From positions 118,580 through 176,844 of the forward strand of contig JBBTRC010000007.1 in assembly GCA_038065355.1 (NCBI GenBank): a stretch of 58,265 bases of DNA. The letters are read 5' to 3'. Below are positions 42,669-45,548 of this stretch, piece after piece. Each line of letters opens with the position of its first letter. Position 1 is the stretch's first letter. The DNA comes from Patescibacteria group bacterium (GTDB taxonomy: Bacteria; Patescibacteriota; Minisyncoccia; Phycocordibacterales; UBA918). A program made the translations under genes and the position numbers. Below the pieces are notes generated by a model. It saw only the letters and a program-made list of their open reading frames with translations, was not told where the DNA came from and did not search any database.

Positions 42669-45548
42669 CTAGGTTTCGTCGAGGATAATATTCAAAATGC
42701 GACCGGGAACGTACACAACTTTTTTAATAATTTTGCTCGATAACTTTTCCGCCAATTGAGGGTTGTTTTTAGCCATATTTACCGCATCTTCTTCTGCCGC
42801 GTCTGGCGCGATGGTAATGTCACCTCGAAGTTTGCCGTTGATTTGGACACCGATGGTCACCGTTCTGCCTATGGTCAGTACCGCATCAAAAGTAGGAAAC
42901 TCCTGCAAATGAATACTGTTTTTTTCGCCAGCGGTTTTCCACAATTCTTCTGTTATATGTGGTGCAAATGGAGCGAGCATACACAAAAATACCCGGTAGC
43001 TTTCTTTTGTCAGACCGACTTTTTCAATCAAATTTATGTATATCATCATAGCGCTGATGGCGGTATTGAATTTAAATTCAATAATGTCCTCAGAAACTTT
43101 TTTAATAGTTTTGTGAAGCGCTACGGTCGTTTCCTTTGCTTCCGTGTCGGTGATGTGTTCATGGAGACCATTCACTCGTTCCAAAAATCGACGAATACCG
43201 GCAATGCCGCCCATGTCCCAGGGGTAGTTGTTGACTTCAGCGTATGGGCCCATAAATGCCAAATACATTTTGACCGTGTCAGCGCCAACATTTGTTACCT
43301 GTTCGTCAGGGTCGATTACGTTGCCTTTGCTTTTGCTCATTTTATTGCCATCTGGACCAAGAATGAGACCACGGTTGATGCGACGAGCGTACGGCTCCGC
43401 GTGCTCCGCCAGGCCGAGCCGATGAAGCGCCTTCTGCCAAAAGCGTGAGTACAGCAAGTGCATGGTGGTGTGCTCAGCGCCACCAAAATATAAGTCAACC
43501 GGTAGCCAGGTTTTTTGCGCTTCGACACCAGAAAATGACTCTGAGTTTTTGTTATCGATGTAGCGCAGAAAGTACCAGGAAGAGTCGACGAAAGTATCCA
43601 TCGTCTCCACTTCAGGTCTCCAACCCTGACCAAAAATTTTCTCAGTTCGTTCTTTGAGTTCCTGTGATTTCGCAAGCGGCGGCACCCCGGTCGGCTTGAA
43701 GTCCACGTCTTCAGGAAGTGTCCACGGTAAATGCTCTTCGGGAATAGCGTGTGCCTTTCCTTCCGGATCGTACACAATCGGAATTGGTACTCCCCAGTAG
43801 CGCTGTCGTCCAATCGACCAATCACGGAGTCGATAGGTATTGGTCATCCACCCACCCACTTTCTCAGTGATGGCAATTTTCGCTTCTTCGGAGTCCATGC
43901 CGTCAAATTCTTTAGAATTTATCAGAGAGCCGCTCCCGCTGAATACACTGCCCAGGAAGGTGTTCCATGCAATGCGGTGGTGCTCCCACGCAATCTTGCT
44001 ATTTACCTCTTCCATTGTGACCCATTCAACAGTATGTTTACCTTCGTCAATTTCAGAGGCAACCTGGGTTAAGTCTTTTAATTTAACGTGATAAAAGGAA
44101 TTGTTTGTAATCTGATTTTTATCTTTTGGAACTCGAAAACCAATGCTTTTTGCACTCTCTAAAACACAAGAAACTATTTCAAAGTTAGTGAATCCAGTTT
44201 CCTCAACTATTTCTCGCCTAATCGCTTTTTCTGCCGGTTCTCCATCAGTTCCTCCACCTACAAAATGTGTCACCGTGTCAGTTTGCAACAAAAACGTGTC
44301 GTCCGTTGGGTGTTCGATGATCATATCGACACAGTCACGGTGCAGAGTTTCTTTGCCCTCTTGGTATTTCTCAATTCCTTTTTGCTCAGTTCGTGGTACT
44401 ACAACCTGGCGGATTTTTAAATCAAACTTCTTTGCAAACGCAAAGTCGCGCTCGTCATGCGCGGGTACAGCCATGATAGCGCCAGTACCGTAGCCACTAA
44501 GCACGTAATCAGCCACAAAAATAGGAATCCGTTCGTTGTTGGCGGGGTTGATAGCGACTACTCCTTTAAGTTCGATACCAGTCTTTTCTTTCGTATTGTC
44601 GCCGCGTTCAATATCACCTTTCTGCTTCGCTATTCGCGCGTAGGCCAATACCTCTTCCTTGTTCTCAAGGACATGATGATTGTTGTCAGTCGCCAATGTA
44701 ATCCATGGATGTTCAGGAGCAAGGACGAGATAGGTGGCACCAAAAAGAGTGTCTGGTCGCGTGGTGAAGACTTTAAGTGCGGCTTTTTCGCCGTGAGGGC
44801 CACGATTGGCGTTGGCTTCTGGCTGATAAGTAAAGAAAAGTTCAAAATCAATTTCTGCTCCTTCCGAGCGACCAATCCACTGTCGCTGTGCTTCTTTAAT
44901 GTGTTCTGGCCAGTCGAGGGCGTCGAGGTCGTCGATGAGCGCGTCGGCAAAGTCAGTGATACGGAGCATCCACTGCGGCATTAAACGTTTTTCAATCTGA
45001 TTACCGCAACGATCACAGCTACCATCAGCGTGCACTTGCTCATTGGCAATCACGGTGTTGTCATGCGGACACCAGTTCACCATGCCTTCGCCGCGATAGG
45101 CTAGGCCATTTTCAAAAAACTTGGTGAACATCCACTGCGTCCACTTATAATATTCGGGGTCGGTGGAAGAAGTGGTCTTGTCCCAAGAGAAAGCGTTGCC
45201 CATACTGGCGAGCTGGTTTCTCATGTATTCAATGTTGCTTTCCGTCCAGTCTTTTGGATTAATGCCGCGTTTAATGGCGGCGTTTTCAGCTGGCAAGCCG
45301 AAGGCATCAAAGCCCATCGGAAACAGCACCTGCTTTCCCTTCATGCGCAAAAAACGCACGTAAATGTCGGGTACCGCAAAGGCGTACCAGTGACCAATGT
45401 GAAGGTTGCCGGACGGATACGGCCATTCCACCAGCACATACTCTTTTTCTTTTTCTTGATCACGAGAGCCGACGTCGTAGAGACCATCAGTCGCCCATTT
45501 GGTTTGCCACTTTTTTTCTATCTCTTGGTGATCAAAACGTTTATGCAT
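42669..45548 (-). CDS. leuS: leucyl-tRNA synthetase with an inserted Nudix hydrolase domain (959 aa)
   Basis: Motifs [14 protein letters not shown] and AHDERD (CP1 editing), [14 protein letters not shown] and KMSKSKGN. An extra ~125-150 aa at residues ~386-535 contains [23 protein letters not shown]. Confidence 0.92.
   Translation of the reverse strand: [959 protein letters not shown]

Follow-up and report, generated by a model that had tools for sequence, protein, structure and literature searches.

Few enzymes are as conserved and as well studied as the aminoacyl-tRNA synthetases (aaRSs), and the CP1 domain of leucyl-tRNA synthetase (LeuRS) is a textbook inserted proofreading domain. What, then, is to be made of a LeuRS whose CP1 domain itself contains what appears to be a second enzyme? 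The question is raised by the leuS gene of a 58,265-nucleotide stretch of DNA (hereafter the window) from a Patescibacteria group bacterium (assembly GCA_038065355.1, contig JBBTRC010000007.1), in which a domain of the Nudix hydrolase family is embedded in the synthetase. This architecture is not a one-off fusion but one instance of a widespread, hitherto undescribed system in which class-Ia synthetases of the Candidate Phyla Radiation (CPR) carry exchangeable hydrolase cassettes. Taken as a whole, it is best explained, with a probability of roughly 0.45, by an optional Nudix cassette carried on LeuRS, with dinucleoside polyphosphates as the leading substrate candidate.

Alignment with the LeuRS of Thermus thermophilus (Tth) locates the insertion: about 13 residues of the Tth enzyme (364-376) are replaced by about 151 (query 385-535), and the alignment picks up again at query 536, equivalent to Tth 377. 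With a gathering cut-off of 21.1 bits, the Pfam NUDIX family (PF00293) reaches 35.2 bits when the whole protein is searched and 39.6 bits when only the segment is, and the Nudix box fits GX5EX7REUXEEXGU at all specified positions. Modelled alone by AlphaFold, the insert (predicted local distance difference test score, pLDDT, 95.5) adopts the order β-β-β-α-β-β-β-α-α, an α/β/α sandwich with the box-bearing helix at insert residues 54-66. Structural comparison with Foldseek returned 383 matches at E <= 1e-3, and all 50 of the 50 listed are Nudix hydrolases; the best is 2AZW (TM-score, TM, 0.74), followed by the Aquifex diadenosine tetraphosphate (Ap4A) hydrolase 3I7U (TM 0.70) and, further down, by AvrM14, NudI, YmfB, RppH, BdRppH and CT771. 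It is virtually certain that the segment is a real Nudix fold, and the models indicate a complete, independently folding domain nested in a surface loop of CP1.

The host is equally well defined. The equivalog model for bacterial LeuRS (TIGR00396, leuS_bact) scores 889.2 bits against the open reading frame (ORF), with a cut-off of 548.4; phmmer aligns it to Tth LeuRS 1H3N at E = 2e-193, and Foldseek matches the whole protein to LeuRS-tRNA complexes of Escherichia coli at TM 0.82. An AlphaFold model of the full LeuRS, built with an alignment of homologues, reached pLDDT 89.9 and a predicted TM-score (pTM) of 0.79, with the insert region above 90. The editing-domain family PF13603 scores 187.7 bits, and its match is split into two stretches, residues 222-397 covering positions 1-154 of the 185-position profile; this places the Nudix domain within CP1 and not at its end. 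The HIGH, KMSKS, TTRPDT and AHDERD motifs are invariant in 114 homologues, whatever cassette these carry.

An earlier, sequence-only reading of this DNA, made with coordinates 43944-44393 (residues 386-535), had claimed a complete Nudix domain within CP1 of LeuRS, an exact Nudix box with all catalytic glutamates, and intact synthetase and editing motifs. These claims hold up: the domain scores above the Pfam cut-off, is modelled with a Nudix fold and has Nudix-only structural matches; its place in CP1 follows from the gap in the Tth alignment and the split PF13603 match; and both the box and the four host motifs were located by motif reading (Table 1).

The bacterium harbouring this LeuRS belongs to the Patescibacteria (CPR, Paceibacteria-like), and the assemblies matching the window come from Hainich groundwater. 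The leucine-specific domain of about 58 residues that precedes KMSKS in the Tth and E. coli enzymes is absent in this LeuRS and in the whole family (around residues 725-740, window 43329-43360), the step from query 732 to 737 corresponding to Tth 580 to 638. Gene order around leuS is kept between window 37202-46591 and loci L002-L006, and runs DUF5671 membrane protein, leuS, a protein with σ70 region 4 and HARE-HTH, DUF8128, YceG, MnmA and an ATP-cone/AF1548-like protein.

Table 1. Coordinates of the LeuRS, its embedded Nudix domain and other features, numbered from the first nucleotide of the window
Feature	Window position	Strand	Basis or remark
leuS, 959-aa bacterial-type LeuRS hosting the insert	42669-45548	(-)	single uninterrupted ORF
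HIGH signature, synthetic site	45390-45401	(-)	motif reading; H50, G52, H53 invariant
KMSKS signature, synthetic site	43329-43343	(-)	motif reading
CP1 editing domain, pre-insert part, residues 222-397	44358-44885	(-)	PF13603 match
TTRPDT, in CP1 pre-insert part	44748-44765	(-)	motif reading
AHDERD, within a 15-residue CP1 stretch (GTG...AHDERD)	44445-44462	(-)	motif reading
CP1 post-insert part, ~residues 537-575, ending RLRDW	43824-43940	(-)	Tth alignment; approximate boundaries
Nudix cassette, residues 385-536, with its own N-terminal lead strand and C-terminal helices	43941-44396	(-)	Tth alignment gap; absent from relatives of 805-824 aa
Pfam NUDIX match, residues 404-523	43980-44339	(-)	PF00293
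Nudix box, 23 residues, residues 431-453	44190-44258	(-)	exact GX5EX7REUXEEXGU match
Glutamates E446, E449, E450 of the REx2EE helix, predicted catalytic/metal-binding	44199-44213	(-)	invariant in 43 inserts
F471, aromatic residue at the X-loop specificity position, +18 after the Nudix box	44136-44138	(-)	alignment
E499 (SEIDEG), candidate extra catalytic/metal ligand, putative role	44052-44054	(-)	kept in >=90% of embedded Nudix domains
GluRS-type synthetase, 448 aa	1440-2786		
Class-II Asp/Lys/Asn-type synthetase, 475 aa	11047-12474		GC3 0.414
Short AlaRS, 632 aa	30112-32010		
HlyD-type membrane-fusion protein and 1088-aa AcrB-family RND transporter	51577-56407	(+)	

Such an arrangement is common among close relatives. 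The best 120 LeuRS homologues, with overall identities of 62-72%, divide into 110 that have an insert at the site used in the window and 10, of 805-869 aa, that are without it. The LeuRS-Nudix architecture recurs in more than 100 protein clusters at 90% identity, drawn from NCBI, JGI and ENA and all from Patescibacteria; the named carriers include Candidatus Paceibacterota, Parcubacteria, Kaiserbacteria and 'Patescibacteria group', and Nudix domains embedded in LeuRS at this position also turned up in Moraniibacteriota and Saccharibacteria when GTDB species genomes were scanned. As the scan with the type-A profile (defined below) gave at least 13 genome loci, the taxonomic picture is a sample. 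In the databases these proteins have precomputed PF00293 matches and are named only 'leucine--tRNA ligase' or 'class I tRNA ligase family protein'. Full-text literature searching found no paper describing the architecture, so the novelty proposed at the outset stands as regards publication, but not as regards uniqueness, given the clusters already in public databases. A 2026 survey of domain insertions covering 2.7 million domains lists the LeuRS editing domain with 'zero instances of host function' (PMC13114784). A word-index search with the insert alone gave no match, a result attributed to a limit of the index (a short domain in long proteins) and not to uniqueness.

An unexpected property of the insert is that it behaves as a cassette, being acquired, lost and replaced among relatives, which is uncommon in an essential gene. 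Several types can be told apart: type A, that of the window, with the motifs '…IEHP…HFVGGGT…'; type B, with 'YWLPGGG'; type C, with 'FFGGK'; type D, with 'EWKKD.MHGLVTGG'; and further types. The types share about 25-30% identity; the LeuRS backbones are 70-77% identical throughout. One case is the pair P0014 and P0023, whose proteins show 100% identity in residues 31-345 and 94% past the insert but only 25% within it; in the corresponding contigs, DNA identity is 98.0% over 1250 bp before the insert and 90.4% over 1420 bp after it, with about 530 bp devoid of similarity between these flanks. Likewise, two metagenome-assembled genomes (GCA_043750595.1 and GCA_031429535.1) have syntenic contigs that share 94-97% identity along 13 kb, interrupted only by a cassette of 511 or 522 bp. 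The converse also occurs, P0014 and P0093 sharing an 85%-identical cassette in backbones only 71-78% identical. Over 5995 pairs, backbone and insert identity are practically uncorrelated (r = 0.09), and of the 12 pairs with the most similar backbones, four combine unrelated cassettes and in one a single member has a cassette. Tandem A+B cassettes exist as well. These comparisons rely on pairwise identities and on DNA, the neighbour-joining tree of backbones being star-like and unreliable for deep branches.

The window's cassette is compositionally foreign: G+C content at third codon positions (GC3) is 0.384, against 0.514 in the rest of the gene, and of all 997 segments of 151 codons in the 58 kb, those with the lowest GC3 fall on it. 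The Nudix module is thus very probably an exchangeable cassette, and, because near-identical backbones carry unrelated cassettes or none, it appears to be optional, with LeuRS function apparently independent of the cassette carried. The simplest route for replacement at one site would be recombination through the strongly conserved LeuRS flanks (…AHDERD… on one side and …NS.EFDG…RLRDW… on the other).

Between loci L001 and L002, synonymous divergence (dS) in leuS is 0.08 before the cassette and 0.55 after it, and the leuS backbone is therefore itself mosaic. In the same comparison (L001 3181-7111 and L002 4091-8684) the 5' halves of leuS are 98% identical in DNA and the downstream genes are wholly different: L002 has the usual σ70-r4/HARE-HTH, DUF8128, YceG and MnmA set, and L001 has genes of the Aminotran_1_2 aminotransferase, α/β-hydrolase, methyltransferase and CbiA/AAA_26 families, for which a role in biotin synthesis (BioF/H/C/D-like) is a guess.

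Cassettes are, moreover, confined neither to one loop nor to one host. A profile of the insert, run against 1.84 billion representative proteins, gave 29 matches below 1e-30 and 1634 below 1e-10; almost all of the best 150 are LeuRSs or LeuRS fragments, with backbones 40-60% identical to that of the window. Across 270 proteins examined, Nudix domains occupy at least three sites in LeuRS, with one to three copies per protein: site 1, at about residues 210-255, where CP1 starts just before TTRPDT (17 domains); site 2, that of the window, at about residue 385 (211 domains); and site 3, at about residue 630 in the ZN2/CP2 region (5-6 domains). Each cassette brings its own N-terminal lead segment and C-terminal helices. 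Cassettes are often closest to cassettes at another site in other LeuRSs (the site-1 domain of P0130, for example, is 58% identical to the site-2 domain of P0231), and therefore move between loops; such movement would need a mechanism other than same-site flank recombination. Nudix domains of the same lineage are also embedded in valyl-tRNA synthetase (ValRS), both in Ryanbacteria (MHNR01000016.1, L016 1971-4247) and in P0150, and a 1318-aa M17 leucyl aminopeptidase (P0147) has the arrangement GNAT+Nudix+GNAT; the window's own M17 peptidase (9630-11060) has no insert.

Nor is the system restricted to Nudix domains. Relatives of the LeuRS carry Ham1/ITPase at site 1 and between the catalytic and anticodon domains (P0010, P0218), a HAD phosphatase at site 1 (P0189), and the α/β Ser_hydrolase PF06821 at sites 1 and 3 (P0257, P0195), and usually hold a Nudix domain too. 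It is conceivable, though short of probable, that class-Ia aaRS genes of CPR bacteria carry an 'intragenic accessory genome' of hydrolase cassettes in surface loops, which are duplicated, moved, lost and exchanged by flank recombination; its cause could be a functional link to the by-products of aaRSs or an intein-like persistence.

Is the embedded domain an active enzyme? In an alignment of 43 inserts less than 62% identical to each other and 18-60% identical to that of the window, the only invariant columns are G432 (the box glycine) and E446, E449 and E450, and R445, E499 and one tryptophan are conserved in at least 90%. The pattern G-x5-[ED]-x7-RE-x2-EE is kept in 98 of 120 homologues; in most other insert-bearing homologues the sole change is R to K/N or E to Q at box position 7, and in P0097 the box is degenerate. 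Since synonymous sites are saturated for same-type cassettes, identity at four-fold sites was used in place of dN/dS: in a pair of type-D cassettes from distinct lineages, protein identity is 85% whereas identity at four-fold third positions is 23% (saturated), which argues for strong purifying selection on type-D cassettes. Judged from these sequences, the cassettes appear to be under purifying selection, and the Nudix domain is likely to be catalytically active.

The closest standalone relatives are proteins of 160-170 aa that have a start codon and the same lead segment as the inserts. Of those with informative contigs, one lies 2 bp upstream of a leuS that itself has an embedded Nudix (P0156); another (P0161) precedes by 3 bp, on three contigs, a leuS that has no insert; and the others lie upstream of thrS (P0210) and of an ORF matching the C-terminal half of methionyl-tRNA synthetase (MetRS), a metG fragment (P0183). 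At L025 (40-1218) and L026 (35-1012), a standalone Nudix ORF is followed after 40 bp by a 208-aa ORF corresponding to metG profile positions 303-506; on these short contigs MetRS may be split, or the Nudix gene may lie between two MetRS pieces. A metagenome scan with a profile of the standalone form yielded 80 loci, in 56 of which the Nudix domain is embedded in LeuRS; there were 26 complete standalone Nudix ORFs. In four of the 56 LeuRS-Nudix loci (L054, L082, L088, L097), a second, standalone Nudix gene of the same lineage lies less than 3.5 kb from leuS. This Nudix lineage thus seems to be tied to aaRSs in CPR bacteria, and its occurrence either as a separate gene or embedded argues for a functional association with synthetases, though not a universal one.

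What the module acts upon can be approached through its chemistry and its location. The conserved glutamates of the REx2EE helix would bind Mg2+ and hydrolyse a nucleoside-diphosphate-X compound, and carriage on an abundant, constitutive synthetase would set both the level of the Nudix domain, in fixed ratio, and its location, close by. Synthetases form dinucleoside polyphosphates from aminoacyl-adenylate and a nucleotide, and the leading substrate candidate would be these aaRS products, namely Ap4A, diadenosine triphosphate (Ap3A) and dinucleoside polyphosphates in general (ApnN); the module would then be an asymmetric hydrolase of diadenosine polyphosphates (ApnA) or have an RppH-like activity. 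A substrate of the ApnN type is proposed tentatively, ApnN- or RppH-like activity being narrowly ranked first and generic nucleotide sanitation next. The ApnA idea, already put forward in the sequence-only reading, is favoured by the association with aaRSs; by the presence of an Ap4A hydrolase (3I7U, the second-best match), RppH and CT771 among the structural neighbours; and by an aromatic residue in the X-loop, since ApnA hydrolases have a conserved X-loop tyrosine some 17 residues past the Nudix box (Dunn et al., 1999, summarised in PMC5389931). At this position there is Phe471 in the window, Tyr in most type-A relatives and Trp or Tyr in type D and others; type B has no aligned aromatic residue. 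The best NCBIfam matches of the insert are RppH models, all below threshold, and the standalone P0161 matches RppH over nearly its full length (E = 3.9e-10, 39.8 bits against a cut-off of 118).

Several observations weigh against this assignment. No curated Nudix subfamily model in NCBIfam is reached by the insert: RppH models (PRK00714) score 17.4-22.3 bits against cut-offs of 116-241, and MutT (TIGR00586) scores 14.7 bits against 97.9. The neighbours in the Protein Data Bank (PDB) mix MutT, NudI, NudG, Ap4A hydrolase, RppH and DIPP with no clear winner. The Ham1/ITPase, HAD and α/β-hydrolase domains in the same loops suggest a generic carrier more readily than Ap4A chemistry; they speak against an obligatory coupling to leucylation, as does the optional and exchangeable nature of the module, which close relatives do without. 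LeuRS is not known as a leading producer of Ap4A. Finally, in the metagenome scan none of the 26 standalone ORFs has an adjacent aaRS gene on the same strand; the same-strand neighbours that were present, in 11 cases, are heterogeneous (Ser_hydrolase-like, putative HtpX, CofD-like, deaminase-like, DUF5671), and the aaRS adjacency of the four closest standalone relatives is therefore not generalisable.

The rival that survives best, although it is somewhat unlikely, holds that the Nudix domain is a house-cleaning passenger with a generic MutT-, NudI- or NudG-like role in nucleotide sanitation or salvage and no mechanistic link to leucylation, LeuRS serving as a large, essential, constitutive and insertion-tolerant carrier for small hydrolases in streamlined CPR genomes. 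Much of the evidence above is compatible with it: the other hydrolase families in the same LeuRS loops, the GNAT+Nudix+GNAT aminopeptidase, the existence of an NCBIfam model for isoleucyl-tRNA synthetase (IleRS) with GNAT, the identity of the best characterised PDB sequence neighbours (MutT and NudI), the dispensability and replaceability of the module, and the heterogeneous neighbours of standalone relatives, including a standalone Ser_hydrolase-like gene. It would also fit that no second Nudix domain was found in the 58-kb window. Against it, LeuRSs make up the overwhelming share of the best 150 matches of the insert profile, rather than an assortment of essential proteins; each of the four closest standalone relatives on informative contigs adjoins an aaRS gene; and the fact that a single Nudix lineage has entered LeuRS repeatedly, at several sites, and ValRS as well suggests something beyond fortuitous tolerance.

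A less probable proposal is that the Nudix domain is directed at RNA or tRNA ends and takes advantage of CP1 holding the acceptor end of the tRNA, for example to remove a 5' pyrophosphate in the manner of RppH, an Np4N or NAD cap, or a pyrophosphate or nucleotidyl adduct on the 3'-CCA of tRNA. CP1 is the domain that receives the CCA end of tRNA, and the insertion sites cluster in and around it in both LeuRS and ValRS; RppH provides the best NCBIfam matches, nearly full-length though below the cut-off for P0161; and the highest-ranking structural matches include RppH, BdRppH and the decapping effector AvrM14. These indications are offset by RppH scores that all lie far under the family cut-offs, by the site near residue 630 (ZN2/CP2) and the standalone forms, which need no CP1, and by the lack of evidence for RNA-binding additions.

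Still less probable is a conflict module, in which the cassette would neutralise a nucleotide-type toxin, antibiotic or signal aimed at the aaRS or tRNA (for instance aminoacyl-nucleotide 'Trojan-horse' inhibitors or toxin-made nucleotides) and the turnover of types would reflect an arms race; a variant that does not exclude it is a selfish in-frame domain, intein-like but without splicing, that persists since its imprecise loss kills an essential gene. The rapid replacement of types and their presence or absence between genomes 94-98% identical are in keeping with this, as are the age of cassette lineages that are nevertheless shuffled among backbones and sites, the foreign composition of the cassette, and the GNAT domains embedded in IleRS and in an M17 peptidase, GNAT being a family that detoxifies aminoacyl-nucleotides. 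Against it, neither the insert nor the whole protein matched any of 5027 PADLOC-DB 2.0 defence models at E <= 0.01, no relatives were found on viral contigs, no intein motifs or repeats occur at the junctions, selection within types is purifying and not diversifying, and acyl-phosphoramidate inhibitors are not cleaved by the classic Nudix reaction. A conflict-driven or selfish cassette would be compatible with the other readings and is not exclusive of them.

Two further alternatives fare worse. That the insert is a non-catalytic structural or binding module, such as a tRNA- or protein-binding surface replacing the missing leucine-specific domain, is very improbable: that domain is indeed absent, and Nudix-fold proteins without enzyme activity are known (PMC5389931), but across cassette types no columns are invariant other than those of the box glycine and the three catalytic glutamates, and the insert-less relatives, which are also without the leucine-specific domain, are conserved. 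The conservation of catalytic residues together with purifying selection makes a purely structural role unlikely, and a degenerate Nudix domain was rejected on the grounds that the catalytic residues are the most conserved columns. A chimeric contig or gene-calling artefact joining a Nudix gene to leuS, which the sequence-only reading had asked to be excluded and which the metagenomic source and the deviating composition of the insert might suggest, has a negligible probability, given one unbroken ORF, the exact 959-aa protein on seven contigs from several assemblies, an independent Logan assembly (L108) that is 100% identical to the window over 3985 bp covering both junctions and so excludes a chimera, and the same architecture in more than 100 clusters from many studies.

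The remainder of the window provides the genomic setting. About 40 of its 43 large ORFs are on the minus strand, and neither tRNA genes nor Rfam families at gathering score were found in window 1-58265. Its GluRS-type, class-II and AlaRS synthetases contain no Nudix domain and no other obvious insert. The HlyD/AcrB pair, one of the few plus-strand gene pairs, is also kept in the related locus L004 and is notable for a presumed cell-wall-reduced, ultra-small bacterium. Three genes (11047-12474, 15789-16592 and 16966-17883) have a GC3 of 0.41-0.44 against a window mean of 0.52, and may be other compositionally foreign segments.

The implications of an optional Nudix cassette on LeuRS reach beyond this locus. 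With CP1 as the host of a second enzyme that has its own predicted catalytic site, the view of the editing domain solely as an insert is challenged. If the Nudix domain hydrolyses Ap4A-type compounds, this would be the first physical coupling of the main cellular source of dinucleoside polyphosphates to their hydrolase, and would open a direct way into the old debate over whether ApnA are signals or waste. Whatever the substrate, an essential housekeeping gene can carry strain-variable accessory functions, because unrelated domains occur in near-identical backbones, at several sites, from several families and in other hosts (ValRS, M17 peptidase). This bears on how ultra-small CPR genomes pack and exchange functions, on pangenome and phylogenetic work that treats leuS as a clean vertical marker, and on protein engineering, the loops being natural permissive sites for whole-enzyme insertion into an aaRS. 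Should the notion of an intragenic accessory genome prove true, the unit of horizontal transfer would be a single domain within an essential gene, with the synthetase as a platform for expression and inheritance.

Set against known systems, the LeuRS of the window shares family, fold and the HIGH, KMSKS, TTRPDT and GTG...AHDxRD motifs with the bacterial enzymes of T. thermophilus (1H3N/2BTE) and E. coli (4AQ7/4ARC), and differs from them by the addition of a 151-residue Nudix domain in the CP1 loop equivalent to Tth 364-376 and by the loss of the leucine-specific domain of about 58 residues. In the domain-insertion survey the LeuRS editing domain figures only as an insert and never as a host (PMC13114784), whereas here CP1 is the host. 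With small Nudix hydrolases (the uncharacterised 2AZW of Enterococcus faecalis, 3I7U, RppH, MutT, NudI) the insert has in common the box, the α/β/α fold and a size of about 135-150 residues, at profile E-values of 1e-15 to 1e-9 and TM 0.6-0.74 but with only 13-23% identity; unlike them, it is embedded in the domain of another enzyme and is not free-standing, and its lead segment (…R.G.ET..R…(I/V)(E/K)HP…) is lineage-specific and common to the standalone CPR relatives. A parallel among class-Ia synthetases is provided by NF040702 ('isoleucine--tRNA ligase, N-acetyltransferase domain-containing'), a precedent already acknowledged by curators, which also combines a synthetase with a small-molecule-modifying enzyme domain, although the inserted family there is GNAT instead of Nudix and the host is a different one.

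Inteins and homing elements resemble the cassette in being in frame, folding independently and lying between conserved host motifs, as well as in their sporadic presence or absence and a phylogeny at odds with that of the host. The Nudix cassette, however, has neither splicing motifs nor an endonuclease, and is modelled as a stable part of the protein whose own catalytic site would be under purifying selection. An intein was also rejected at the level of the junctions (...QVVVP|RTEQ... and ...GSVF|SGSGS...), of which the N-terminal one is without Cys/Ser/Thr and the C-terminal one without His-Asn and a nucleophile. Rosetta-stone pairs are a further parallel, in that members of this Nudix lineage are found both as genes of their own, 2-3 bp upstream of leuS, and within leuS itself; in contrast to an end-to-end fusion, the one described here is internal and nested, and occurs at several sites and in several copies.

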